A DNA stretch of 64,000 nucleotides from Bacteroidota bacterium (GCA_008933835.1 WBUG01000002.1:62929-126928), one strand, 5' to 3'; shown: positions 1 to 12,661, counted from the stretch's first letter. A program made the numbers and translations. The notes: generated from the letters alone by a model not told the origin.

Positions 1-1
1 G

Positions 2-1534
2 TCGTGCCACGGCTCCGCAGAGATGACGCAGGGGGTCGCCTCGAGCTTCATCCATGCGTACGAGCAGAGCGTCCATGCGAACGCCCTGAAGAACGGGAAC
101 GGGAAGGCGGCCAACTGCGTGGACTGCCACAGCAGTCATGATATGCAGAAGGGTTCGCACCCGGACTCGAAGGTGAACAAGAAGAACATCCCCGGCACCT
201 GCGCCCAGTGTCATGAAGGTGTCGTGAAGACGTACGAGACGAGCATCCACGGAAAAGCGTTCGCCGGCGGGAACACCGTGTCGCCGGTCTGCACGGACTG
301 TCACGGCGAGCATAAGATCCTCGGCACCAAGGACCCCGATTCCCCCGTCTCGAAGCTCCACGTCGCCGAAGAGGTCTGCGCCCCCTGCCACGCTTCGGTG
401 AAGATGTCCGAGAAGTTCGGGCTCCCCACCGGGAAGACGAACACGTTCAACGACAGCTTCCACGGTCTGGCCGTGAAGTCCGGAAGCAAGGAAGCGGCGA
501 ACTGCGCCAGCTGCCACGGCTACCACGATATCCTGCCGTCGTCCGACCCCGCCTCGCGCGTGAGCAAGTCGAACCTCGCGAAGACCTGCGGCACCTGTCA
601 TCCCGGCGCGGGGGAGAACTTCTCCGCCGGCGTCGTGCACGTCTCCACCAAGGCGGACAGTGAGGACGACCTCATCGCGTTCGTCTCGAACATCTACGTG
701 GTGCTCATCCTCGTCACCATCGGCGGCATGGCCGCGCACAACATCCTCGACTTCGTCCGGAAGTCAAAACGCCGGCTGCAGCACCGCCGCCACGGTCCCG
801 GCGAGGAGGAGGTCGGCCACAGTCTGTACGTCCGCATGACCCTCGGCGAACGTCTGCAGCACGGAGCGCTCGCCCTGAGCTTCATCACCCTGGTCGTCAC
901 CGGATTCATGCTCCGCTATCCGGACGCCTGGTGGGTGGTGGGGATCCGCTCTCTGAGCGAATCGGTGTTCGAGATCCGCGGCGTCATCCACCGCGTGGCC
1001 GCCGTCGTGATGGTCCTGGCCTCGCTGTACCACCTCTATTATATCTTCTTCGTCCCCCGCGGCAAGCAGCTCATCCGTGACCTTCTGCCCAAGGTGCAGG
1101 ACGCGTACGACGCCATCGGCGTGGCACGCTATAACCTCGGTCTTTCGAAGGAAAAGCCGCTGCTGGACCGCTTCAGTTACATCGAAAAGGCCGAATACTG
1201 GGCCCTGATCTGGGGGACCATCGTCATGGCCGTCACCGGCGTCATCCTCTGGTTCGACGTCACGTTCATCAATCTCATCGGCAAGCAGCTGTGGGACGTC
1301 TCCCGCGTCGTGCACTACTACGAGGCATGGCTCGCCACGCTCGCCATCATCGTCTGGCACTTCTACTTCATCATCTTCAATCCGGACGTCTATCCGATGA
1401 ACCTCGCCTGGCTCAAGGGGACCATCTCGGAAGAGGAGATGGCGGACGAACATCCGCTGGAACTCCGCCGCATCAAGGAGGAACAGCTCCGCCTCGAGGA
1501 AGAGGAGAAGAAGAAGAACGCCGACATCAACTGA
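2..1534 (+). CDS. 5'-partial fusion protein: periplasmic multiheme cytochrome c domain plus C-terminal FdnI/HydC-type membrane cytochrome b domain (CbcL-like inner-membrane quinol oxidoreductase)
   Basis: The reading frame is open from the window edge; upstream codons already read ..SCHG, so the gene starts before position 1. Six complete CxxCH motifs are visible: CVDCH, CAQCH, CTDCH, CAPCH, CASCH and CGTCH. About 4-5 His-containing transmembrane helices follow (LILVTIGGMAAHNILDF, LALSFITLVVTGFMLRY, AAVVMVLASLYHLYYIFF, IVMAVTGVILWF, LATLAIIVWHFYFIIF), typical of Ni/Fe-hydrogenase or formate dehydrogenase b-type cytochrome subunits. Confidence 0.8.
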   Translation, partial: SCHGSAEMTQGVASSFIHAYEQSVHANALKNGNGKAANCVDCHSSHDMQKGSHPDSKVNKKNIPGTCAQCHEGVVKTYETSIHGKAFAGGNTVSPVCTDCHGEHKILGTKDPDSPVSKLHVAEEVCAPCHASVKMSEKFGLPTGKTNTFNDSFHGLAVKSGSKEAANCASCHGYHDILPSSDPASRVSKSNLAKTCGTCHPGAGENFSAGVVHVSTKADSEDDLIAFVSNIYVVLILVTIGGMAAHNILDFVRKSKRRLQHRRHGPGEEEVGHSLYVRMTLGERLQHGALALSFITLVVTGFMLRYPDAWWVVGIRSLSESVFEIRGVIHRVAAVVMVLASLYHLYYIFFVPRGKQLIRDLLPKVQDAYDAIGVARYNLGLSKEKPLLDRFSYIEKAEYWALIWGTIVMAVTGVILWFDVTFINLIGKQLWDVSRVVHYYEAWLATLAIIVWHFYFIIFNPDVYPMNLAWLKGTISEEEMADEHPLELRRIKEEQLRLEEEEKKKNADIN

Positions 1535-1555
1535 GACCACCAAGCGGAGCAACGT

Positions 1556-3055
1556 ATGAAGGACCTGCGGTCACTGCTTCCCACGACGTTCTTCAATCCC
1601 GTCAGTTACCTCGGCGGTGCGGTATCCGTCGCCAGTTTCATCCTCATCCTGTTCCTCTTCACCGTGGAGATGCTCGGCGTGCCGATGCAGCCGTACGTCG
1701 GCATCATCACCTTCGTGGTGCTGCCGGGCATCATGCTCCTCGGCATCGCGGTCAGCCTGTACGGCATGCGGCGCGAGAAACGGCGCCGGCTCCGCACCGG
1801 TTCCGAGACCGCGGTGTTCCCCACGCTGGACCTGAACGACCCGGTGCAGCGCACGCGGTTCACCTTCGCTTCCATCCTCGTCTTCATCCTGCTGCTCGGC
1901 ACCGCGTTCGGCAGCTACCAGGTGTACCATTTCACCGAGTCGGTCACCTTCTGCGGTCAGATCTGCCATCAGGTGATGAAACCCGAGTTCGTCGCCTATT
2001 CCAACTCGCCGCACTCCCGCGTCACCTGCGCCGACTGTCACGTGGGGTCGGGTGCGGACTGGTACGTGAAGTCCAAGCTCTCCGGAGCGTACCAGATCTA
2101 CTCCGTCATCTTCAAGAAGTACTCGCAGCCCATCCCCACGCCGGTGCACAGCCTTCGGCCGGCGCAGGGGACGTGCGAACAGTGCCACTACCCGCAGCAT
2201 TTCCATAACGACATCCAGGTCAACAAGACGTACTACCTGAAGGACGAGGCGAACACGCCGTGGTCGGTCTCGCTGCTGATGAAGATCAGCGGCGGCCGGT
2301 CGGACTCCGGCCCCACCTCCGGCATCCACTGGCACGTCAACCGCGACCACGCCGTCACCTACACCGCCGTCGATTCGCAGCGGCAGAACATCCCCGTCGT
2401 CCGCGTCCGCTACCCCGATGCGAGCGAGGACGAGTTCGTGACCACGGATGCGTATGACGCTGCGGCGCTGGCAGCGGGCGAGACGCGCACCATGGACTGC
2501 ATCGACTGCCACAATCGGCCGACGCACATCTACCGTTCGCCGGAAGAGACCATCAACGCCGAGATGTCGCACGGCGCCATCGCTCCCACGCTCCCCTCGG
2601 TCCGCCTCACCGTCTCCGAAGCGCTCACGCAGGAGTACGCGGACGACGAGGCGGCGATGAAAGGCATCGCTTCGTACATCACCGACTTCTACCGCCTCCG
2701 CCATCCGGCGCTGTTCGCGTCACGGCGGACGGAGATCGACTCCGCCGTCAGCGTCGCGAAGCGCATCTATGAGCGGAACTTCTTCCCGTACATGCGCGTG
2801 AGCTGGAAACGGTACCCGAACAACATCGGCCACTTCAACAACCTCGGATGCTTCCGGTGCCACGACAACAAGCATGTGTCGAAGAAGACCGGGAAGGTGC
2901 TGTCGAACGACTGCAACACCTGTCATACCATCCTTTCGCAGGGGACGTCGCTCGCCTCGAACATCTCGCCGAAGGGGCTCGAGTTCCTCCATCCGGTCGA
3001 CATCGGCGATGCCTGGAAAACGATGAACTGCATCGACTGCCATACGGGACAATGA
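1556..3055 (+). CDS. membrane-anchored heptaheme cytochrome c (ImcH-like / NapC-NirT-related candidate quinol dehydrogenase)
   Basis: The N-terminus has 2-3 hydrophobic transmembrane segments. Seven heme motifs follow: CGQICH (CX3CH), CADCH, CEQCH, CIDCH, CFRCH, CNTCH and CIDCH. Length of about 499 aa and the heme count match the ImcH family. Confidence 0.7.
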   Translation: MKDLRSLLPTTFFNPVSYLGGAVSVASFILILFLFTVEMLGVPMQPYVGIITFVVLPGIMLLGIAVSLYGMRREKRRRLRTGSETAVFPTLDLNDPVQRTRFTFASILVFILLLGTAFGSYQVYHFTESVTFCGQICHQVMKPEFVAYSNSPHSRVTCADCHVGSGADWYVKSKLSGAYQIYSVIFKKYSQPIPTPVHSLRPAQGTCEQCHYPQHFHNDIQVNKTYYLKDEANTPWSVSLLMKISGGRSDSGPTSGIHWHVNRDHAVTYTAVDSQRQNIPVVRVRYPDASEDEFVTTDAYDAAALAAGETRTMDCIDCHNRPTHIYRSPEETINAEMSHGAIAPTLPSVRLTVSEALTQEYADDEAAMKGIASYITDFYRLRHPALFASRRTEIDSAVSVAKRIYERNFFPYMRVSWKRYPNNIGHFNNLGCFRCHDNKHVSKKTGKVLSNDCNTCHTILSQGTSLASNISPKGLEFLHPVDIGDAWKTMNCIDCHTGQ

Positions 3056-3235
3056 GGTCCGGTTCCTTCCCGACTTTGCAAAGGGGCCGATTTGGGTTTT
3101 CCTAATCGTAGGAAGCCGACCCCCGTTCTGATGCAAATTTCAACGGTTTTATGTTGGATTTTTCGGCACATAAATTGCCATAAAATGGGAGAGTTTCACT
3201 CTTTTCTTTCACACTTCACTTCAATGGAGACAGAC

Positions 3236-3748
3236 ATGAAAAAGCTTCTCTATCTTCTCTTCGCGGTCGTCATCGCGCTGCCGCTGGCCGCGCAGAACAA
3301 GTATGTCGGCGTGAAAGGTTGCGCCTGCCACAACATGCCGAAGCAGGGCAAGCAGGTGGACGTGTGGAAGAAGTCGGACCATGCGAAGGCGTTCGAGACC
3401 TTGAAGAGCGACAAGGCGGCGGAGATCGCGAAGAAGAACGGCATCGCCTCCGCGGCCGAAGCGAAGCAGTGTCTCGAGTGTCACTCCACCGGCGCCGGTG
3501 ATCCGGCCGAGAAGACCTTCGCCGCCGCCGACGGTGTGCAGTGCGAAGCGTGCCACGGTGCCGCCTCCGGATACAAGGCCATTCATAACAAGCCCGAGAA
3601 CAAAGAGAAGGCGGTCGCCGCCGGTCTGCTGAAGGCCGATGAGAAGACCTGCAAGCCGTGCCACGGCGCCAACAAGATGCACGACGCGAAACCGTTCGAC
3701 TACAAGAAAGCGTGGGAACAGATCAAGCATCCGGCACCGAAAGGCTGA
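3236..3748 (+). CDS. small secreted cytochrome c (3 canonical CxxCH plus one atypical CACH)
   Basis: An internal ATG at 3236 gives the signal peptide MKKLLYLLFAVVIALPLAAQ. Motifs are CLECH, CEACH, CKPCH and GCACH. The upstream in-frame extension of the track ORF lies in an AT-rich non-coding gap and is rejected. Confidence 0.75.
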   Translation: MKKLLYLLFAVVIALPLAAQNKYVGVKGCACHNMPKQGKQVDVWKKSDHAKAFETLKSDKAAEIAKKNGIASAAEAKQCLECHSTGAGDPAEKTFAAADGVQCEACHGAASGYKAIHNKPENKEKAVAAGLLKADEKTCKPCHGANKMHDAKPFDYKKAWEQIKHPAPKG

Positions 3749-3750
3749 GT

Positions 3751-5031
3751 ATGGAACGGACACTTCTGGCGGCGCTCGTGCTGCTGTCGATGACGGCGGA
3801 CGCGCAGTCGATCAACGGCCGGCTGACGACATCGTTCTACGGCTTTGAAGGCCGCGATGCCGCGCTGGCGAAGCAGACCTACCTCCGGGCGTACGAGAAC
3901 GTGTACCTGAACGCCTCCAGCGGTGATGTTTCATTCAATATGAACGCGATGGTCAGCAACGATTTCGGCTCCGACCTCGCGACCGACCCCGAACTCCGAA
4001 TCTCCTCCTTACTGGTGAAGGTGAGAAAGATTGGCGGCTTGGCGGACCTGTCCGTCGGCCGCCAATTCATTTTCGCCGGTGCCGGGTACGGTCTCATCGA
4101 CGGCGCGCAGACGGGACTCCGCTTCCTGGACGACCGGGTGAGCGTCACGCTGTACGGCGGAACGAACGTGGACCACACCCGCGACGTCCGCAAGCAGTGG
4201 ATCGGCAGCAACGGGATGTTCGGCGGCCAGGTCGTCTTCGCCCCCGTCGAGAACGGTTCGGTCGGTCTCAGCTATATGAACAAACGGCGGGAGCGCGCGC
4301 CGTACACCGCCGTCCGTGCGGACTCGCTCTTCAATCCCTACATCATCGTCGTCAACAGCACCCCGCTCGAAGAGGAGCTCGCCTCGGTCGATGCGGAGTA
4401 TGAGTTCGGCCACGCGGTGATGCTGCAGGCGAAGGCGGACTATGACGTCCACCATGCTGAGCTCTCCCGCATCCAGGCCTTCACCCGCGTGCACGCCATG
4501 GAAGGCCTCAGCGGAACGCTGGAGTACATCTTCCGCGAACCCCGCGTCGCCTACAACTCCATCTTCTCCGTCTTCAACACCAACAGCACGCAGGAGATCG
4601 AAGGGGGTCTCGAGTACCGTCACAGTCCCTTCTTTTTCCTCTTCGCCCGCTTCGCGGACGTGCAGTATGTGGACGACAACAGCCAGCGGCTGTCGGTGGG
4701 TGGGACGTACGAGTTCCTCTCCGCCGCGTACACCCAGAACTTCGGATACGCCGGCGAACTCAACGGCGTCTCCCTGCAGGCGGCCTATCCGCTGATGGAC
4801 CGTGTCATCACCCCCACGTGCGGGTTCGGCTACGCCTCCTATAAACATGCGAAAGACGACCCGTCCAGCACGGTCGTCAACCTGGCGGCCGGAGCGGTCT
4901 ACCGTCCCAGCAAGTACATCTCGGCGGACGTGCAGCTGCAGTGGATGCAGAATCCGCAGTTCGACAGCGACATGCGCGCCTTCGTCAAGTTCACCTATTG
5001 GTTCAACGATCGTTTGGGGTGGCTGGAATGA
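3751..5031 (+). CDS. outer-membrane beta-barrel protein (porin partner of a porin-cytochrome complex)
   Basis: An internal ATG at 3751 gives the signal peptide MERTLLAALVLLSMTADAQS. The protein is rich in alternating hydrophobic/Gly/Tyr beta-strand patterns and has an aromatic-rich C-terminus (FVKFTYWFNDRLGW). It starts 2 nt after the small cytochrome gene, and its stop overlaps the next cytochrome's start. Confidence 0.7.
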   Translation: MERTLLAALVLLSMTADAQSINGRLTTSFYGFEGRDAALAKQTYLRAYENVYLNASSGDVSFNMNAMVSNDFGSDLATDPELRISSLLVKVRKIGGLADLSVGRQFIFAGAGYGLIDGAQTGLRFLDDRVSVTLYGGTNVDHTRDVRKQWIGSNGMFGGQVVFAPVENGSVGLSYMNKRRERAPYTAVRADSLFNPYIIVVNSTPLEEELASVDAEYEFGHAVMLQAKADYDVHHAELSRIQAFTRVHAMEGLSGTLEYIFREPRVAYNSIFSVFNTNSTQEIEGGLEYRHSPFFFLFARFADVQYVDDNSQRLSVGGTYEFLSAAYTQNFGYAGELNGVSLQAAYPLMDRVITPTCGFGYASYKHAKDDPSSTVVNLAAGAVYRPSKYISADVQLQWMQNPQFDSDMRAFVKFTYWFNDRLGWLE

Positions 5032-6233
5032 AAAAGAACCTCACCATCGCCGCGGCCGCCGCCGTCCTCATCGGTCTGGTCCTCTTCGGACGCGGAACCG
5101 TCGTGGCGGACGATGCAGCGCCGGCGGACAAGACGCAGCTCATCAAGTTCTCCCATGCCAAGCACGCCGAGGCCGGTGCCGAATGCGCGTCCTGTCATAA
5201 AGCGGACCTCAGCGACAACTCCTCGGACCGCATGCTCCCCGGCCACGCCGAGTGCCAGTCCTGCCACGAGCAGGAAGTGAACGAGAATTGCTCCTTCTGC
5301 CACACCAATCCCGACGATCCGCAGGCCCTTCCCAATCCCGTCCGCTCCCTCTTCTTCAGCCATAAACAGCATGTCGGTATGGAGGGGGTGAAGTGCGAGA
5401 CGTGCCATCAGGGGATGGACAAAGCGGACTTCGCCGGTCATCAGAACCTTCCCGCCATGGCGACCTGCAATACGTGCCATAACGACGTGAAGGCGACGAA
5501 CCAGTGCGAAGCGTGCCACACGGACCTCTCGAACCTCCGTCCGGCGTCGCACAACGTTGCCAATTTCAAGCGCGAGCATGCGCGCGTCATGAGCCTCCGC
5601 ACGTTCGAAGCGAAGTGCCAGTCCTGCCACACCGAGCAGTCCTGCGCTGAGTGTCATGACGGCACCAATCTGACCGAACTGGCCCCCGGCGTGAAGAGCG
5701 GTCTGCTCTCGCCGCGGCACGCCGCCGGCGACAAGGCGGTCGCTCTGGCGGGCGAAGCGGTGCACGGCATGAACTACCGCTTCACGCACGGCATCGATGC
5801 CAAAGGCCGCGCGGCGGACTGCCAGACCTGCCACAGCAGCCAGCAGTTCTGCAGCGACTGCCACATGAACGGCTCCGCCGCCCTCGGCGGTGCGATGCCC
5901 ACCAGCCATGAGGCGCCCGGCTTCACCACCATCGGCGTCGGATCGGGCGGCGGCTCGCATGCGACCCTCGCGAAGCGCGACATCCAGCGCTGCATGACCT
6001 GTCACGACACGGAAGGGGGCGACCCCAACTGCATCACCTGCCATGCGGACTACGACGGCATCAAGGGGACCAATCCCCGGACGCACAAGAGCGGCTTCAT
6101 GAAGGATAACGAACACGGCGAATGGCACGACGATGCGAACGCGAACTGCTTCGTCTGCCATACGGACGCCAATGCCAAACCGAGCGGAAGACCGGGACAG
6201 GGATTCTGCGGATATTGCCATGGTGTGAAATGA
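5028..6233 (+). CDS. periplasmic 14-heme c-type cytochrome (MtrA/OmaB-like periplasmic conduit cytochrome)
   Basis: The ATG at 5028 overlaps the porin stop (ATGA). Signal peptide is MKKNLTIAAAAAVLIGLVLFG. There are 14 CxxCH motifs: CASCH, CQSCH, CSFCH, CETCH, CNTCH, CEACH, CQSCH, CAECH, CQTCH, CSDCH, CMTCH, CITCH, CFVCH and CGYCH. Confidence 0.85.
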   Translation: MKKNLTIAAAAAVLIGLVLFGRGTVVADDAAPADKTQLIKFSHAKHAEAGAECASCHKADLSDNSSDRMLPGHAECQSCHEQEVNENCSFCHTNPDDPQALPNPVRSLFFSHKQHVGMEGVKCETCHQGMDKADFAGHQNLPAMATCNTCHNDVKATNQCEACHTDLSNLRPASHNVANFKREHARVMSLRTFEAKCQSCHTEQSCAECHDGTNLTELAPGVKSGLLSPRHAAGDKAVALAGEAVHGMNYRFTHGIDAKGRAADCQTCHSSQQFCSDCHMNGSAALGGAMPTSHEAPGFTTIGVGSGGGSHATLAKRDIQRCMTCHDTEGGDPNCITCHADYDGIKGTNPRTHKSGFMKDNEHGEWHDDANANCFVCHTDANAKPSGRPGQGFCGYCHGVK

Positions 6234-7054
6234 TGAACACGACCCTTCGTTTCGGGACCCTGGCGCTCGTCGCCGCGCTGCTCCTCGGCGGATGCGCCGA
6301 GACCAAAGAGGACAAGGTGCCCACCACGCCGGAAGTGTCGGTGCACGGCGCCGGTTTCGCCGACATTTCTTCGTCGAACTTCCACGCGAAGTACATCCAG
6401 GGGAAGAACTTCGACCTCTCGCTGTGCAAGACCTGCCACGGTCCCGATTTCTCCGGCGGAACGTCCGGGAAGTCGTGCAACACCTGCCACAGCAAGCCCG
6501 GCGGACCGGAGAACTGCACCGTCTGCCACGGCAGCGTGAATGCCGCACCGCCGTTCGATCTGGCGGGCAACGTATCGCCCGCATCGCGCGCCGTCGGAGC
6601 GCACCAGGTCCATCTGCTCGGCGGCCTCGTCGGCGCCAAGGTCACATGCACCGAGTGCCATGTCGTCCCTGCGGCCCTCACTGCCGCAGGACACATCGAC
6701 AATTCAGCCCATGCAGAGGTGCGGTTCGACCCTTCGTCGGTCTTCTATAAGGCGGACGCCGTGTTCAGCGGCAGCGGTACGACGGCCACCTGTTCCAACA
6801 CCTACTGCCACGGCAACTTCCCCGGCGGTAACGGCAACGTGACCATGACCTGGAGCGATACCAATCCGGACGCTGCCGCCTGCGGTACCTGCCATGGCGA
6901 CGTCACCAAGGCGACCTTCGCCGAGAAGGCGTTCCCGAAGAGCGGTCATCCTGCTATCGGCAGCATGACGTGCAACCAATGTCATTCGCGCACGGTGAAC
7001 AGCCTTGCGCAGATCATCGATCCGTCGAAGCATGTGAACGGCGTGGTCGATTAA
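6230..7054 (+). CDS. lipoprotein multiheme cytochrome c (7 heme motifs; putative outer-membrane/surface cytochrome)
   Basis: The ATGATG start overlaps the upstream stop. A lipobox (LLLGGC) is present. Motifs are CKTCH, CNTCH, CTVCH, CTECH, CSNTYCH (CX4CH), CGTCH and CNQCH. Confidence 0.8.
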   Translation: MMNTTLRFGTLALVAALLLGGCAETKEDKVPTTPEVSVHGAGFADISSSNFHAKYIQGKNFDLSLCKTCHGPDFSGGTSGKSCNTCHSKPGGPENCTVCHGSVNAAPPFDLAGNVSPASRAVGAHQVHLLGGLVGAKVTCTECHVVPAALTAAGHIDNSAHAEVRFDPSSVFYKADAVFSGSGTTATCSNTYCHGNFPGGNGNVTMTWSDTNPDAAACGTCHGDVTKATFAEKAFPKSGHPAIGSMTCNQCHSRTVNSLAQIIDPSKHVNGVVD

Positions 7055-7133
7055 CGAAAGTGACTCATCCTTCACCGGGAGTCATTTTGCACCAAGAACC
7101 AATCACTTCATCACTGAAAGGAGCGTTAAGACA

Positions 7134-8354
7134 GTGAAACATCTCCTGACTGTTCTGATCGCACTGTTGTTCCTTGCTCTCCAGGCCTGCGAAGGACCCG
7201 AAGGTCCCGCCGGCGCGCAGGGTCCTGCTGGTAAGGACGGCGCGAACGGACAGAACGCCGGCTTCGTGTACTTCGAAGGCTTCAAAGACAGCCTCCGCTG
7301 CGCGACCTGCCATACTCCCGATGCCGATACGGCGCTGTTCATGGCCGCGAAGACGTTGGAATACGAATCCGCCGGTCACATGGAAGGCACTTCATGGGCG
7401 CGCGGTATCAACAGCGGCGATTGCGCCAGCTGCCACATCACTGAAGGGTATCTCGAATCGGCACGCGGCAATTTCGCGTCACAGGCGACCAAGCTCTACT
7501 CGCATGGTTCGCAGCCCGGTTGCTTCACCTGCCATTCGCCGCATAAGGCCGGTTCGTTTGCGGTCCGCAAGACCGATGCGATCAAGGTGAAATCCTTCGT
7601 TGCCGGCGCTGCCGACCTGCAGTTCAACGTCGGTTCGTCCAACACCTGCGTCACCTGCCATCGTACGCGTGAGACTAGCCCGATGACGAACAGCGTTTTC
7701 GTGAACGGCGTCAGCGGCAACCCCGATCCGACGAAGACGGCAGCGACCGACTCCATCGAGATCAAGACCAGCCGCTTCTATCCTCACTATGGCGTCCAGG
7801 GCCAGATTCTGACCGGAAAGGGAGGATTTGAGTTCACCGGATATACCTACCCGTCATCGTATCACACGAATCTGGCGGCGGCAAAGAACATCCAGTGCTC
7901 CGACTGCCATATGGCGAATCCGACCGTCATCGTGAACGGTACACCGGTCGCCGGCGGACACACCCTGAAGATCGGGTACAGCTCCATTTCCACCGACTCC
8001 GCGAACAATATGGTGAACGTCGCCGGTTGCCGGACGACGGGATGCCATCCGAGCGCCTTCACCGCCAACACGGTGACCGCGACGGTGTTCGCCGCGTTCA
8101 AGCAGTCCGGTCAGAAAGCGCTGCAGGATTCCATGGCCACGCTGAAGTCCATGCTTGTCTCGAAAGGCTGGCTCGATCCGGCGACGGACCTTGCCAAGCT
8201 GACCGGCGGCAAACTGGTGATCAAGCCCGCCTATAAGGCCGGTGCATTGTTCAACTACTTCTTCTTGGAACATGAAGGAAGCCACGGCATGCACAACATG
8301 CAGTATGCTCAGGCGTTGCTGAATGCTTCGTTGGCGGAACTCCGCAAACCGTAA
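7134..8354 (+). CDS. lipoprotein multiheme cytochrome c with N-terminal collagen-like Gly-X-Y stalk (6 heme motifs)
   Basis: GTG start at 7134 with the RBS aaaggag about 10 nt upstream. Lipobox is LALQAC. A (GPE)(GPA)(GAQ)(GPA)(GKD)(GAN)(GQN) stretch follows. Heme motifs are CATCH, CASCH, CFTCH, CVTCH, CSDCH and CRTTGCH (CX4CH). Confidence 0.8.
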   Translation: MKHLLTVLIALLFLALQACEGPEGPAGAQGPAGKDGANGQNAGFVYFEGFKDSLRCATCHTPDADTALFMAAKTLEYESAGHMEGTSWARGINSGDCASCHITEGYLESARGNFASQATKLYSHGSQPGCFTCHSPHKAGSFAVRKTDAIKVKSFVAGAADLQFNVGSSNTCVTCHRTRETSPMTNSVFVNGVSGNPDPTKTAATDSIEIKTSRFYPHYGVQGQILTGKGGFEFTGYTYPSSYHTNLAAAKNIQCSDCHMANPTVIVNGTPVAGGHTLKIGYSSISTDSANNMVNVAGCRTTGCHPSAFTANTVTATVFAAFKQSGQKALQDSMATLKSMLVSKGWLDPATDLAKLTGGKLVIKPAYKAGALFNYFFLEHEGSHGMHNMQYAQALLNASLAELRKP

Positions 8355-8402
8355 TTCCCTCCTCCTACCTTACAGAACGAAAGCACTACCTCCTCATACC
8401 AG

Positions 8403-8433
8403 CCGACCCGCACCCCGCGGGTCGGTTTTTTTT
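8403..8433 (+). terminator. Rho-independent terminator after the cytochrome cluster
   Basis: A ccgacccgc / gcgggtcgg 9-bp stem with loop acccc is followed by 8 T residues. Confidence 0.7.
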
Positions 8434-8504
8434 AAAATGCCCGTACCGTTGAGACCGGCACACGCTGTCGTTGAATTTCGTGCGGTTATTCTGTACCATG
8501 ATGC

Positions 8505-9647
8505 ATGTCCTTCATCCGTCCGCTCGCGCTCCTTTTGGCCGCCGTTCTGTCATCACCGGCGCAGGAACGGATCCTGACGGTGACCGTGTCGATGCCCGAT
8601 TCTCTTGCGAAACCCTCGCTGACGCTGTTCGTCGCCGGCAACAGACCGGAGTTCGGCAACTGGCATCCCGCGACTGCGGCGCTCGAGCGGGTGAACGACA
8701 CCGTGTGGCGCCGCTCCTGGACCTTCCCGCAGGGGAGCGTGCTGCAGTTCAAGATCACCGCCGGTTCGTGGGACGATGAGGCCGTGTACCGTGCGGACGC
8801 CGTTCCGGGCAACACCATCATTCATCTCGATTCCGACACCACCGTGCAGCTCCGACCCATCTTTTGGAAGTCGCGCCTGAAACTGGCGAAGCCCGAGCGG
8901 GCCATCGTCGGCACCGTGCGGTACCATCGCGGTCTGACCGGCGCAGGACTCGCGCATGCGCGGGACCTCATCGTGTGGCTCCCGCCGTCGTATGAAACAG
9001 CCTCCGCGAAGCGATATCCGGTGCTGTATGTGCATGACGGACAGAACATCTTCGACCCGTCGACGTCGTTCACCGGACACGACTGGAGGATGGACGAAAC
9101 GGCGGACAGTCTCATCCGCATGGGGAGGATGGAAGAGGTCATCATCGTGGGCATCGGCAATACGGCGGACCGGCTGCCGGAGTATTCCGACTCGCCGCTG
9201 GGGGACGCGTACCGGGAATTCGTCATCTCGACCGTGAAACCCCTCATTGATTCCACATACCGTACGAAACCGGACCGCCGCCATACGTCGGTGATGGGAT
9301 CGTCACTGGGAGGGTTGTGCTCGTTCCTGTTCGCATGGAAACGGCCGGACATCTTCGGGGCTGCGGCGGGTCTTTCCACCTCGTTCTGGTACGACGACGA
9401 ACGGACGCTGAAGGAGATCCGCGGACATTCGGGGGCGAAGAAAGCGGTGCGCTGGTATCTGGACTGCGGCGGGAGGGAGAAGGAACTGCTCAGCGGTTAT
9501 CGCCGTATGACGGAGATATTGAAGAAGCAGGGATACGAGAAGGGGAAGGACCTCGAGTACCACCTCGATTCGAACGGCGTCCACAACGAACTCTCATGGT
9601 CCCGCCGCACCTGGCGTCCGCTCTTATTCCTGTACGGGAAGAAGTGA
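8505..9647 (+). CDS. secreted esterase (esterase D / enterochelin-esterase-like alpha/beta hydrolase) with N-terminal CBM20-like carbohydrate-binding domain
   Basis: Signal peptide is MSFIRPLALLLAAVLSSPAQ. The N-terminal region matches a CBM20 pattern (LFVAGNRPEFGNWHP..W..LQFKITAGSW). The catalytic part has YPVLYVHDGQNIFD and a GSSLGG serine motif. Confidence 0.7.
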   Translation: MSFIRPLALLLAAVLSSPAQERILTVTVSMPDSLAKPSLTLFVAGNRPEFGNWHPATAALERVNDTVWRRSWTFPQGSVLQFKITAGSWDDEAVYRADAVPGNTIIHLDSDTTVQLRPIFWKSRLKLAKPERAIVGTVRYHRGLTGAGLAHARDLIVWLPPSYETASAKRYPVLYVHDGQNIFDPSTSFTGHDWRMDETADSLIRMGRMEEVIIVGIGNTADRLPEYSDSPLGDAYREFVISTVKPLIDSTYRTKPDRRHTSVMGSSLGGLCSFLFAWKRPDIFGAAAGLSTSFWYDDERTLKEIRGHSGAKKAVRWYLDCGGREKELLSGYRRMTEILKKQGYEKGKDLEYHLDSNGVHNELSWSRRTWRPLLFLYGKK

Positions 9648-9668
9648 ACGGCGTTCGCCGCGTTCACT
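9645..9668. terminator. candidate bidirectional hairpin between convergent esterase and purE
   Basis: The imperfect palindrome gtgaacg-N10-cgttcac overlaps both stop codons. There is no clean T-run, so it is weak. Confidence 0.3.
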
Positions 9669-10161
9669 TCTTCGTGCTGTGATGCTTCCGGTTCTTTCCC
9701 TTCGACTCCCGCTCCATCCTCTTCTTGTACGCGCTCATCTTCCTGACCAGCGATGCATCACGGACGGAGAGGATCTGTACCGCCAGCAGTCCGGCGTTCT
9801 TCCCGCCGCCGATGGCGACCGCCGCCACCGGCACGCCGCCCGGCATCTGCGCGATGGAGAGGAGGGAGTCGAGCCCGTCCAGCGAGCGGGTCTTGATGGG
9901 GACGCCGATGACCGGCAGCGGGGTGTGTGCGGCGGACATGCCGGGGAGATGTGCCGCGCCGCCGGCGCCGGCGATGAGCACCTTCAATCCGCGTCCCGCT
10001 GCGCTCCGGGCATAGGAGGCCATCAATCCCGGTGTGCGGTGTGCGGAGGTGATCTTCATCTCGAACGGAACGCCGAACTCGGTCAGCACGGCGGCCGCCT
10101 CCTGCATGGTCGGAAGGTCGCTGTCGCTTCCCATGATGATGCCGACGAGCGGTCGTTTCAT
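9664..10161 (-). CDS. purE: N5-carboxyaminoimidazole ribonucleotide mutase
   Basis: Classic PurE sequence: [38 protein letters not shown]...[16 protein letters not shown]. Confidence 0.92.
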
Positions 10162-10180
10162 AGTGTCTCCATTGATGGCG

Positions 10181-11317
10181 TCACAGACGGATGCGGCGCT
10201 CGGCGGCCGCCGCTTCGCGCAGCAGCGTCTCGCGGTCCTGGCCCACGAGCGTGATGTGCCCCATCTTCCTCCCGATGCGCGACGAGCGTTTCCCGTACAC
10301 GTGCAGATGCGCCGACGGGTGACGGAGCGCCGACCTGTGGACGTCGAGCAGGGACTGCGGTTCGGGGCGGCCGAGCAGATTGATCATCACCGCGGCCGGC
10401 GCCACCATCGCCGTGGAGCCGAGCGGCAGTCCCGTGACCGCACGGACATGGTTCTCGAACTGCGAGGTGACGCACGCCTCCATGGTGTAGTGGCCGGAGT
10501 TGTGCGGGCGCGGCGCCATCTCGTTCACGATCACCGTTCCGTCGGCGGCGAGGAACATCTCGATGCCGAACAGACCATACCCTTTCACCGCCTTCACGCA
10601 TTCCACCGCGATCTCCTCCGCCTCGCGCCGCGTCTTCGCCGGTATGGAGGCCGGTGCGATGACGGTGTGACAGATGTGATGCTTCTGCACCGTCTCGACC
10701 ACCGGATACACCGCCGTCTCCTTCCGTGTCCGGGCCACCATCACCGCCAGTTCGCTCCGGAAGTCGATGAACGACTCCGCCATCAGCGTCGCATGCCGTC
10801 CGGTCAGCCGTTCCACCGCCGCGCCGAACTCCTTCGACGAGCGTACCAGTGCATTGCCGTACCCGTCGTACCCCATCTTCCGCGACTTGAGAACGAACGG
10901 CGCGCCGAGCTCCGCCGCGAGCTGCGCGAACGTGCGGTTCCGTTCCACCGCCGTGAAGCGGGGGACCGGAATGCCGTGTTTCGCCAGCGCTTCTTTCTGC
11001 AGGAACTTGTCCTGGATGAGCGCGATGGTGCCGGAGGCGGGTAGCACGCTCCGTCCGGAGGCCTCGAGCAGCTCCAGCCGGTGGTGGTCCACGAACTCGT
11101 TCTCGAGCGTGATGACGTCGCACTGCTGCGCGAACTTCCGCATCAGCCGGTCGTCGTCCACCCAGCCGACGTACTCGTGCCGCGTGAGCCGGCCGGCGGG
11201 AGAGCCGGACTCCTTCTCCATGATGGCGACGTCGATACCGAGGCGGATGGCCGCCTGTGCGGACATCTTGGCGAGCTGGCCTCCTCCGAGGATGCCGAGA
11301 ACGAACGGGTGGGACAT
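10181..11317 (-). CDS. purK: N5-carboxyaminoimidazole ribonucleotide synthase (ATP-grasp)
   Basis: [34 protein letters not shown], followed by an ATP-grasp body. It is adjacent to purE. Confidence 0.9.
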
Positions 11318-11335
11318 GGGGACTGTTGAATGACG

Positions 11336-11367
11336 AAAAAGGAAATGTCGGACGGCTGCGGTCCGAC
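11336..11367 (-). terminator. Rho-independent terminator (minus strand) downstream of the flavoprotein gene
   Basis: A gtcggac/gtccgac 7-bp stem with a 7-nt loop; on the minus strand it is followed by atttccttttt. Confidence 0.45.
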
Positions 11368-11413
11368 ATTCATTGCATGGGAGAAGATAACCGGTTTTCG
11401 GGGGAGAAGCAAC

Positions 11414-12661
11414 TCACCGGAGGGCGGCGCTTCGTCCCGCAACGTATCCGGTCGAGAACGCCGCCTGCAGATTGTACCCGCCGACCGGCCCGGCGATGTC
11501 CAGGATCTCGCCGCAGATGAAGAGTCCCGGAACGACCGCCGATTCCATGGTGGTGGGGGAGACCTCGTTCAGCGGGATGCCTCCCGCGGTCACTTCGCCG
11601 CGGTCCAGCGGGATGCCGGAGACCGTTCCGGCGATGAACCGCTTCAGCACGGAGGCCAGCCGCCGCCGTTCCCCACGGGAGAACTGGTGCAGTTTCCGTT
11701 CCCCGTCCAGCTCTCCCTGCAGCAGCACCGGTTCGGCGAGTTTCGTCGGTATGAAATTGGCAATGAACGTCGATAGGTTCCGGTTCGGTCCTTCGGCTGC
11801 GGCGGACGTCAGCCGTTGTTCGACCGCGTCCGGGGGCGTTCCGGGGAGGAAGTCCACGGCCATCTCGACACGCTTTCCTTCTTCGAACGGCAGGAACGCC
11901 TTCTTCGATATCTCGAGCGCGGCGGGTCCGGAGAGACCGAAGTGGGTGTAGAGGATGTCTCCATCGAACGAGTCGATCGTCTCCGTTCCGCTCACGGCGG
12001 AGAGACGGCAGGAGCGCACCGGTGTCCCCTGCAGCGACGGAGGCGGTACAGGGGTGAGTTCAATCGGGGCGAGCGCTGGGCGGAGCGGTACCACGGTATG
12101 TCCCAGCGCCGTGAGCCAGCGGAATCCGTCGCCGCTCGTCCCGGTCTTCATATACGACATCCCTCCGGTCGCCACGATGACGCTCCGTGCGGTGTACCGC
12201 TCCTGCGCGGTGGTCACGACGAAAGACCCGGACGCTTCACGGATGAGGGAGAGGACGGGAGCGCCGAAGACGGACTGTACTCCCGCATCGGCGGCGGTGC
12301 GGATGAGCGCATCGAGCACATCGTCAGCATTGTGGCTCGAGGGAAAGACCTTTCCGTCTTCCCGGACGTACGTTTCGACACCCTGCTGCCGGAGAAGTTC
12401 ACGGACGGCGCCGTTCGGGAACGCATGGAACGCGAACCGGAGGAAACGCGACTCCGGCTTCTCGAACCGTTTCAGCATCGCGTCGATGGTCCCGCCGTTC
12501 GTCACGTTGCACTTTCCGCCTCCCGATATACGGATCTTGATTCCGGCGCGGGCATTCTTCTCTATTAATATTACCCGCCGGCCTCCGAGTGCGGCCTGCC
12601 ATGCGGAGAGCAGACCGGCGGCTCCGGCTCCGATGACGATGATGGTGTCTGGTGTCTCCAT
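11414..12661 (-). CDS. NAD(P)/FAD-dependent oxidoreductase, HI0933/BaiN-like flavoprotein
   Basis: N-terminal Rossmann motif IIVIGAGAAGLLSAWQAALGGRRVILIEKNARAGIKIRISGGGKCNVTN. Confidence 0.75.
   Translation of the reverse strand: METPDTIIVIGAGAAGLLSAWQAALGGRRVILIEKNARAGIKIRISGGGKCNVTNGGTIDAMLKRFEKPESRFLRFAFHAFPNGAVRELLRQQGVETYVREDGKVFPSSHNADDVLDALIRTAADAGVQSVFGAPVLSLIREASGSFVVTTAQERYTARSVIVATGGMSYMKTGTSGDGFRWLTALGHTVVPLRPALAPIELTPVPPPSLQGTPVRSCRLSAVSGTETIDSFDGDILYTHFGLSGPAALEISKKAFLPFEEGKRVEMAVDFLPGTPPDAVEQRLTSAAAEGPNRNLSTFIANFIPTKLAEPVLLQGELDGERKLHQFSRGERRRLASVLKRFIAGTVSGIPLDRGEVTAGGIPLNEVSPTTMESAVVPGLFICGEILDIAGPVGGYNLQAAFSTGYVAGRSAALR

Follow-up and report, generated by a model that had tools for sequence, protein, structure and literature searches.

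We analysed a 64,000-nucleotide stretch of DNA from a Bacteroidota bacterium (GCA_008933835.1, WBUG01000002.1:62929-126928; hereafter the window), which opens with two adjacent + strand genes for inner-membrane multihaem cytochromes, gene 1 resembling CbcL and gene 2 resembling ImcH of Geobacter sulfurreducens. We propose that these paired menaquinol oxidoreductases and the conduit cluster behind them form one electron-export unit, a reading to which we give a probability of about three in four. The initial annotation had placed two distinct quinol-oxidoreductase-type cytochromes next to each other at the head of a conduit cluster. Both genes lie where it put them, 21 bp apart; five cytochrome or porin-like genes follow gene 2 on the same strand, and a related contig provides a boundary upstream. 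How metal- and electrode-respiring bacteria suit their exit route to acceptor energy is known almost only from G. sulfurreducens. There ImcH is required for acceptors above about -0.1 V, as established by genetics and electrochemistry (Levar 2014), and CbcL for those at or below this potential, as established by genetics and voltammetry (Zacharoff 2016); the genes for ImcH, CbcL and CbcBA lie at separate loci. Beyond Desulfuromonadia, genes for the same protein types often stand side by side, and here they are joined to what appears to be a full outer-membrane conduit in one compact cluster (table 1).

By every structural hallmark that we tested on its sequence, gene 2 is a member of the ImcH family. 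ImcH homologues have been described as proteins of 495-519 amino acids with three N-terminal helices, an unusual CX3CH motif beside the membrane domain and six CXXCH motifs (Zhong and Shi 2018, PMC6295460). Gene 2 encodes 499 amino acids, with hydrophobic helices at residues 19-37, 48-66 and 102-120 by hydropathy and at 15-39, 46-81 and 96-127 in an AlphaFold2 (AF2) model. Seven haem motifs follow, as had been annotated for a protein of about 500 residues with N-terminal helices, although the first of them, CGQICH at residue 133, had not been distinguished as a CX3CH motif; the CxxCH motifs are at 158, 207, 315, 432, 453 and 492. In the 507-residue ImcH of G. sulfurreducens, GSU3259, the helices span 13-35, 45-67 and 100-122 and the first cysteines of the motifs are residues 132, 157, 206, 312, 429, 449 and 487 (PMC6295460 Table S3; bioRxiv 10.1101/2023.05.03.539133 Fig. 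S2 ligand list). Both proteins thus carry the CX3CH motif directly after helix 3 and the six CXXCH motifs in the same order, the numbering of gene 2 being offset by +1 to +5 through small insertions.

The correspondence extends to the haem ligands. For GSU3259, Pimenta et al. (bioRxiv 10.1101/2023.05.03.539133) predicted as axial ligands His137, 152, 161, 210, 256, 258, 316, 321, 423, 433, 453, 474 and 491 together with Gln179, and pointed to Glu127, Lys173 and Tyr188 as protonatable residues near haem 1. The counterparts of the 13 histidines in gene 2 are H138, 153, 162, 211, 258, 260, 319, 324, 426, 436, 457, 479 and 496, and those of the four remaining residues are Q180, E128, K174 and Y189. 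All 13 histidines, Q180 and K174 were invariant among 24 homologues that are 48-80% identical to gene 2 (alignment A1). This conservation is consistent with a NapC/NirT-like quinol site at the CX3CH haem, with Gln as its distal ligand, and with six more bis-His haems that would lie in the periplasm. The Pfam NapC/NirT N-terminal region (PF03264) matched residues 103-190 (E = 6.2e-12), and the resemblance to that family is limited to residues 103-212, as described for ImcH. Arg and Lys abound in the loop that joins helices 2 and 3, so the positive-inside rule places the haem domain of gene 2 on the periplasmic side, as the initial annotation had expected.

Compared by BLASTP with approximately residues 1-275 of GSU3259, gene 2 showed about 38% identity and 59% positives over 274 residues (pairwise E = 3e-62); the identity is approximate because this N-terminal part was rebuilt from a machine-read alignment in the supplement of Pimenta et al. 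and is partial, with optical character recognition errors. The value falls inside the 31.5-49% identity to GSU3259 given for ImcH homologues outside the Geobacter group (Zhong and Shi, PMC6295460). Unlike GSU3259, gene 2 belongs to a Bacteroidota/Ignavibacteriota-type lineage of metagenome-assembled genomes (MAGs), with 63% G+C, and not to Desulfuromonadia. It also lies directly after a CbcL-like gene and before a porin-cytochrome cluster, whereas imcH of Geobacter is far from cbcL by locus tag.

Gene 1 runs off the 5' edge of the window, as had been noted, and the last 510 of about 711 residues are encoded within it; the ATG at position 23 is internal to the gene, and no start of gene 1 lies within the window. 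A database search recovered the missing N-terminus in a protein of 711 amino acids (P0121), which is identical to the gene 1 fragment at 504 of 510 positions. It is carried by a sister metagenomic contig (L001) with 93.4% DNA identity to window positions 1-11568 and the same gene order. P0121 has a signal peptide, which places the c-type domain in the periplasm, and 13 CxxCH motifs at residues 25 to 396; the count of 13 haems for the window's own gene 1 is predicted from this close relative. All 26 cysteines of P0121 and all 14 of gene 2 lie within haem motifs, an arrangement that chance cannot explain. The gene 1 fragment matched PF01292 (Ni_hydr_CYTB, prokaryotic cytochrome b561/Ni-hydrogenase b) at its residues 278-461 (E = 8.9e-16; 58.6 bits against a cut-off of 30.1), and the Pfam scan also returned multihaem c families. 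The domain match and the CxxCH motifs confirm the annotated fusion, in which a multihaem c domain in the periplasm is joined to a cytochrome b domain of FdnI/HydC type. The AF2 model of P0121 has a linker helix at residues 423-463 followed by four helices.

A concern raised in the initial annotation was that the membrane domain of gene 1 might lack the histidines that ligate b haems. This is not the case: H487, H530, H544, H638 and H653 (P0121 numbering) were 100% conserved in 35 full-length homologues from several phyla, with the same result in alignment A2, and five invariant membrane histidines are enough for two bis-His b haems. The two genes encode different quinol-site architectures, both with haem domains facing the periplasm by the positive-inside rule and the signal peptide.

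Members of the CbcL/MtrH/MtoC family combine 3-23 CXXCH motifs in an N-terminal periplasmic domain with a HydC/FdnI-like b domain (Zacharoff 2016; Zhong and Shi 2018). Gene 1 is a protein of this type, with a signal peptide, 13 bis-His periplasmic c haems, a linker helix and an FdnI-like four-helix bundle. It shares with CbcL (GSU0274) the signal peptide, the multihaem c domain, the linker helix, the HydC/FdnI-like dihaem b domain and the conserved membrane histidines. The spacing of its last five haem motifs and helix 1 is 30, 29, 42, 28 and 28, compared with 29, 28, 43, 28 and 28 in GSU0274, and its N-terminal motif spacing (37, 23, 28-30, 28) is that of an Ignavibacteria family member listed by Zhong and Shi. 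The two differ in size and haem number (13 haems in 711 residues for P0121, 9 in 619 for GSU0274) and in helices, five in the P0121 model and six predicted for GSU0274. Across the family, identities to GSU0274 are given as 28.6-100%. Membership in the broad family is well supported by the shared features, and the assignment stops short of orthology to GSU0274.

The excess of haems over GSU0274 can be traced to a duplication. Residues 104-233 and 230-362 of P0121 form an internal tandem repeat of a four-haem module of about 130 residues (local BLOSUM62 score 203), which spans P0121 residues 104-362 and reaches window positions 2-490. Haem counts of 9, 11, 13 and 18-19 occurred among CbcL-like relatives, with 13 in Ignavibacteriota/Bacteroidota-type proteins and 11 in those of Acidobacteriota. 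This suggests that the CbcL-like family was enlarged by the addition of whole modules.

We next considered whether the seven genes belong together. Intergenic distances from gene 1 to gene 7 are 21 bp, 180 bp, 2 bp, a 4-bp overlap, a second 4-bp overlap and 79 bp, and genes 3-7 (3236-8354) lie on the same strand as the pair, with 3, 0, 14, 6 and 5 CxxCH motifs, respectively. The cluster closes after gene 7 with an intrinsic-terminator-like hairpin, the sole + strand candidate in positions 1-9800 with a stem of more than five pairs. At the other end, in the sister contig, a tRNA-Arg(CCG) gene (L001 887-961) and then a hairpin and T-run precede the start codon of the CbcL-like gene by about 250 bp, which makes the CbcL-like gene the first of the cluster in this relative. 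An A+T-rich spacer of about 190 bp separates the tRNA and hairpin from the CbcL-like gene, and together they are likely the 5' boundary and promoter region absent from the window. The 1.2 kb upstream in L001 contains only an ICMT/PEMT-type gene and the tRNA. The 21-bp spacer, the tRNA and hairpin in L001, the hairpin after gene 7 and the recurrence of the layout in other species support the annotated placement, in which genes 1 and 2 head a single operon. A sigma-70 promoter scan of the + strand gave nothing useful, and the sigma-70 consensus is not expected to fit Bacteroidota-type promoters. The 180-bp spacer between genes 2 and 3 (3056-3235) is far more A+T-rich than the window as a whole, with its 63% G+C, and contains TTTG-type elements.

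Table 1. Coordinates of the cluster features in the window (nucleotides, counted from its first base).
Feature	Position	Strand	Basis or remark
Gene 1, 5'-truncated CbcL-like c/b fusion	2-1534	+	frame open from base 2; off 5' edge
Gene 1, periplasmic c-type domain	2-661	+	one cut motif (..SCH) and six complete CxxCH (motif scan)
Gene 1, complete CxxCH motifs	116-130, 200-214, 290-304, 377-391, 503-517, 587-601	+	motif scan
Gene 1, linker transmembrane helix, from periplasmic c domain to cytoplasmic face	668-748	+	hydropathy; AF2 helix of P0121; next loop Arg/Lys-rich
Gene 1, four-helix dihaem cytochrome b domain	833-1384	+	
Gene 1, invariant His codons of b domain	860-862, 989-991, 1031-1033, 1313-1315, 1358-1360	+	P0121 H487, H530, H544, H638, H653
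Gene 2, ImcH-like seven-haem inner-membrane cytochrome, 499 amino acids	1556-3055	+	open reading frame, Pfam, motif and helix layout
Gene 2, three N-terminal transmembrane helices	1610-1915 (1610-1666, 1697-1753, 1859-1915)	+	hydropathy, AF2
Gene 2, putative quinol site at haem 1	1937-2122	+	counterparts of GSU3259 residues
Gene 2, quinol-site residues	E128 1937-1939; CGQICH 1952-1969; K174 2075-2077; Q180 2093-2095; Y189 2120-2122	+	
Gene 2, six CxxCH motifs	2027-2041, 2174-2188, 2498-2512, 2849-2863, 2912-2926, 3029-3043	+	motif scan
Gene 3, small periplasmic c554-like cytochrome, 170 amino acids	3236-3748	+	signal peptide; 3 CxxCH + CACH; PF13435 E = 2.7e-16
Gene 4, porin-like outer-membrane protein, 426 amino acids	3751-5031	+	signal peptide; lacks haem motifs; single Cys
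Gene 5, periplasmic 14-haem cytochrome with c7-like units, 401 amino acids	5028-6233	+	14 CxxCH, 28 Cys; PF14522 E = 1.1e-16; PDB c7-like and ActA matches
Gene 6, lipoprotein cytochrome, 274 amino acids	6230-7054	+	LLGGC lipobox; 6 CxxCH + 1 CX4CH; TIGR01904 CxxxxCH/CxxCH domain E = 5.7e-11
Gene 7, lipoprotein multihaem cytochrome, 406 amino acids	7134-8354	+	5 CxxCH + 1 CX4CH; PF22113 (MtrC/MtrF-like domain) 30.0 bits, at cut-off; lipobox-like LALQAC
Intrinsic-terminator-like hairpin closing the cluster after gene 7	8401-8427	+	11-bp stem, 8 G-C pairs, T8 tail

[quoted passage not shown] Gene 3 is a candidate periplasmic carrier, and its homologues adjoin ImcH-like genes at 17 other loci; gene 7 is a candidate cell-surface terminal reductase. 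Gene 4 gave no family match in Pfam, NCBIfam, a single-sequence search of the PDB or a PDB search with a profile of 14 homologues. Its family alignment showed more period-2 than helical amphipathicity by a crude measure, the reverse of two cytochrome alignments. Position, signal peptide and this amphipathicity point to a putative beta-barrel, and the size also fits the porin of the Ignavibacterium album porin-cytochrome (pcc) cluster. That cluster, IALB_1838-1840, includes a 400-residue protein with 14 haem-binding motifs, IALB_1838 (Shi, Fredrickson and Zachara 2014), and genes 3, 4 and 5 repeat its order of small periplasmic cytochrome, porin-like protein and 14-haem cytochrome of about 400 residues. 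The I. album cluster was described without attached inner-membrane quinol oxidases, whereas here both stand immediately upstream and two lipoprotein cytochromes come after.

To see how often the two inner-membrane genes are neighbours, we scanned public genomes (one per species) with the ImcH-like alignment as query, which returned at least 564 relatives, of which the best 80 were kept. A CbcL-like gene was called when a b domain scored at least 130 bits within 10 kb of the ImcH-like gene. By record title the 80 loci came from Ignavibacteriota/Bacteroidota, Acidobacteriota, KSB1, Calditrichota, Verrucomicrobiota/Kiritimatiellales, Omnitrophota, Latescibacteria, Gemmatimonadota and others; Geobacter is absent from these best 80, and its non-adjacency is taken from published locus tags. 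A CbcL-like gene was present at 48 of the 80 loci: upstream on the same strand with a gap below 600 bp (23 loci) or a larger gap (20 loci), downstream on the same strand (3 loci) or on the opposite strand (2 loci). Another 23 loci had no CbcL-like gene with at least 2.5 kb of upstream sequence visible, and nine were uninformative, with too little upstream sequence. Homologues of the porin cluster stood beside the ImcH-like gene at no fewer than 12 loci. Pairwise identities of linked CbcL-like and ImcH-like proteins were correlated (r = 0.76; none of 2000 permutations reached this value), as would fit long co-inheritance; a shared species tree would give the same result.

The larger gaps between the two genes are typically about 3 kb. 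At one locus (L009) the gap, 7000-9928, holds a 664-residue multihaem cytochrome with a C-terminal helix and a 313-residue cytochrome b, a split pair that we liken to CbcA and CbcB of Geobacter by their described layout. Such a CbcA/CbcB-like pair adjoins the ImcH-like gene at 21 of the 80 loci, usually separating it from the CbcL-like gene (L003, L004, L009, L010, L015, L017, L021, L027, L032, L045, L054, L063 and L078 are among them). Homology links the b domain of gene 1 with the CbcB-like proteins of these related loci (30% identity over 222 residues, E = 3e-24). Loci with the split pair have, one after another, look-alikes of the three inner-membrane quinol oxidases of Geobacter; no such pair exists in the window.

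Linkage also differed between individual MAGs. An I. album MAG (L030) has a CbcL-like gene 60 bp upstream of its ImcH-like gene and no porin-cluster homologue within 10 kb, whereas a Melioribacter-type MAG (L060) has an ImcH-like gene without a CbcL-like neighbour within 10 kb upstream. Linkage therefore appears variable within the class and does not track the reported Fe(III)-reducing phenotype. A second, uncultured Melioribacter MAG (L075) shows only about 600 bp upstream and was uninformative.

From these observations we propose the following route. Genes 1-7 probably form one transcript of about 8.4 kb that would encode a complete path from the quinone pool to the cell surface, with genes 1 and 2 providing two structurally unrelated inner-membrane oxidoreductases between menaquinol and periplasmic cytochromes. 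Menaquinol would be oxidised by the CbcL-like protein, the ImcH-like protein or both, and electrons would pass to the c554-like and 14-haem periplasmic cytochromes. These would deliver them, by way of the porin-like protein, to both lipoprotein cytochromes and from there to an extracellular acceptor, so that the predicted net flow is from menaquinol to the outside. By analogy with Geobacter, the ImcH-type entry would serve high-potential acceptors, and the CbcL-type entry would operate at lower potential, turning itself off once oxidised. Alternative entry points chosen by potential, as the initial annotation suggested for this organism, would be a reasonable extension of Geobacter genetics. 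CbcL of G. sulfurreducens is constitutively expressed and is inactivated at high potential at the protein level, and single residue changes shift the threshold; residues V205 and F525 gate Geobacter CbcL. With such a switch in the protein, co-transcription of both genes would be sensible, and a single transcript would leave the choice between them to the proteins and not to transcription. The layout argues for a potential partition decided after translation.

Several points weigh against an electron-export unit. The function of the cluster in this organism is predicted from sequence, and gene 4 is assigned as a porin from its context and a rough measure of amphipathicity. An internal promoter for the outer-membrane genes could lie in the 180-bp spacer before gene 3. 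The ImcH-like gene has no CbcL-like neighbour at 23 of the 71 informative loci. I. album, with its pcc cluster elsewhere in the genome, was listed with organisms for which no reduction of solid Fe(III) or Mn(IV) oxides is known (Shi et al. 2014); since it carries the gene pair, the acceptor may be something other than a metal oxide. Fe(II) oxidisers also have members of the CbcL/MtrH/MtoC family, so the family does not fix the direction of electron flow. A BLASTP comparison of gene 1 with machine-read fragments of GSU0274 gave no significant match; these fragments are unreliable (identical strings in every row), and we did not use the result as evidence either way.

The family's presence in Fe(II) oxidisers raises the alternative that the cluster runs in reverse, for uptake of electrons from Fe(II) or a cathode, with gene 1 reducing quinone in the manner of MtoC, the family member of Fe(II) oxidisers. 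The two directions cannot be told apart by any sequence feature. However, ImcH homologues have been reported only from organisms that send electrons outwards, by the time of Shi et al. 2014 no Pcc-type cluster had been found in a known Fe(II) oxidiser, and a survey of open reading frames revealed neither a Cyc2 gene nor an obvious module for reverse electron flow near the cluster. We regard electron uptake as quite improbable. The fixed order of the CbcL-like and ImcH-like genes in several phyla and their 21-bp spacing could instead reflect one physical or obligate functional complex, joined by the CbcA/CbcB-like proteins where they are present, for example an energy-conserving or energy-dissipating redox loop in quinol oxidation. 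The presence of that pair in the same block at 21 of the 80 loci and the correlated identities would both fit such a complex, which we nevertheless consider unlikely: the species tree could account for the correlation, nearly a third of the informative loci (23 of 71) lack the CbcL-like neighbour, GSU0274 and GSU3259 are far apart in Geobacter by locus tag, and there each protein supports respiration alone within its own potential window.

The cluster might also belong to ordinary periplasmic respiration, with gene 2 as an NrfH/NapC-type anchor of a nitrite, nitrate or trimethylamine N-oxide (TMAO) reductase and gene 1 as the gamma subunit of a formate dehydrogenase or hydrogenase. Homologues of the two are indeed automatically annotated as 'nitrate/TMAO reductase-like tetraheme cytochrome c subunit' and 'cytochrome b subunit of formate dehydrogenase', and weak profile matches exist. 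TIGR03153 (NrfH) covers gene 2 residues 109-212 and TIGR01583 (FdnI) matches gene 1, but at 51.3 and 56.5 bits they fall far under their cut-offs of 134.2 and 115.85; TIGR02161 (NapC) gave 16.2 on gene 2 against 310.6, and TIGR02125 (HyaC) 29.9 on gene 1 against 121.5. NrfH in the PDB (2j7a) aligns with gene 2 residues 108-212 (phmmer E = 0.0074), from helix 3 to haem 3, and gene 2 shares with NrfH and CymA a conserved Lys near haem 1. It differs from both in having three helices and not one, seven haems and not four, a CX3CH His/Gln haem 1 and not CXXCHxM, and no partner reductase gene in the cluster. The b domain of gene 1 shares one chain with a 13-haem c domain, whereas stand-alone FdnI and HyaC have about 200 residues. 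Elsewhere in the 64-kb window, a motif survey revealed neither a CxxCK protein nor another CxxCH-rich open reading frame. No catalytic reductase subunit occurs among the seven genes of the cluster or in the 1.2 kb upstream in L001; non-cytochrome genes such as nap or fdh, unannotated in the rest of the window, were not searched there. The better fit of gene 2 to NrfH or NapC, with nrf or nap genes nearby, that had been feared in the initial annotation was thus not borne out, and this reading, which fails the available tests (scores, architecture and the lack of a catalytic partner in the cluster), is scarcely credible.

The export unit that we favour is built from members of known families and brings no new protein family. 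ImcH and CbcL homologues in Ignavibacteriae/Bacteroidetes, and Pcc clusters in Ignavibacteria, have been published; Zhong and Shi (PMC6295460) reported that both families can occur in one bacterium, and no mtrAB or mtoAB genes next to imcH. What may be new is the side-by-side layout, widespread in public genomes. Full-text literature searches found no published statement of the cbcL-like/imcH-like adjacency, of its place at the head of a porin-cytochrome cluster or of a cbcBA-like pair in between; the gene maps of Zhong and Shi 2018 may depict it already. A specialist would not be surprised by the proteins, and the conserved cbcL-(cbcAB)-imcH-pcc layout is a useful comparative observation. With it, extracellular respiration in uncultured lineages could be predicted from a simple genomic signature, and the seven genes, about 8.4 kb in all, are a unit that could be transferred intact to a host.

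We tentatively extend this to a broader idea, which we hold to be possible but doubtful. The genes for the CbcL-like and ImcH-like proteins, and for the CbcA/CbcB-like pair where it occurs, may be an ancient 'quinol exit module', inherited together and expressed jointly in many phyla. The scatter of these genes in Geobacter would then be derived, and either the choice of exit by acceptor potential would be built in at the protein level or the proteins would cooperate physically. If true, such a module would mark extracellular electron transfer in genomes better than any one gene could.

Further observations concern individual genes downstream of the pair. The first haem motif of gene 3 is CACH (residues 29-32, window 3320-3331), with one residue between the cysteines. 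At the same site, 14 of 17 gene 3 homologues have CXXCH, one independent MAG (L008) has CVCH and another locus (L034) has CAGICH. The CACH motif is also present in L001, so a sequencing error is unlikely, and a literature search found no described CX1CH haem-c site. The gene 7 protein is 77% identical to its counterpart in L001 (L001 8942-10126), compared with 95-100% for the other six cluster proteins; the presumed surface-exposed protein thus appears to be diverging much faster than the rest. Directly after the hairpin, positions 8505-9647 encode an esterase (PF00756) with a signal peptide and an N-terminal starch-binding CBM20 domain, which is unrelated to the cluster.

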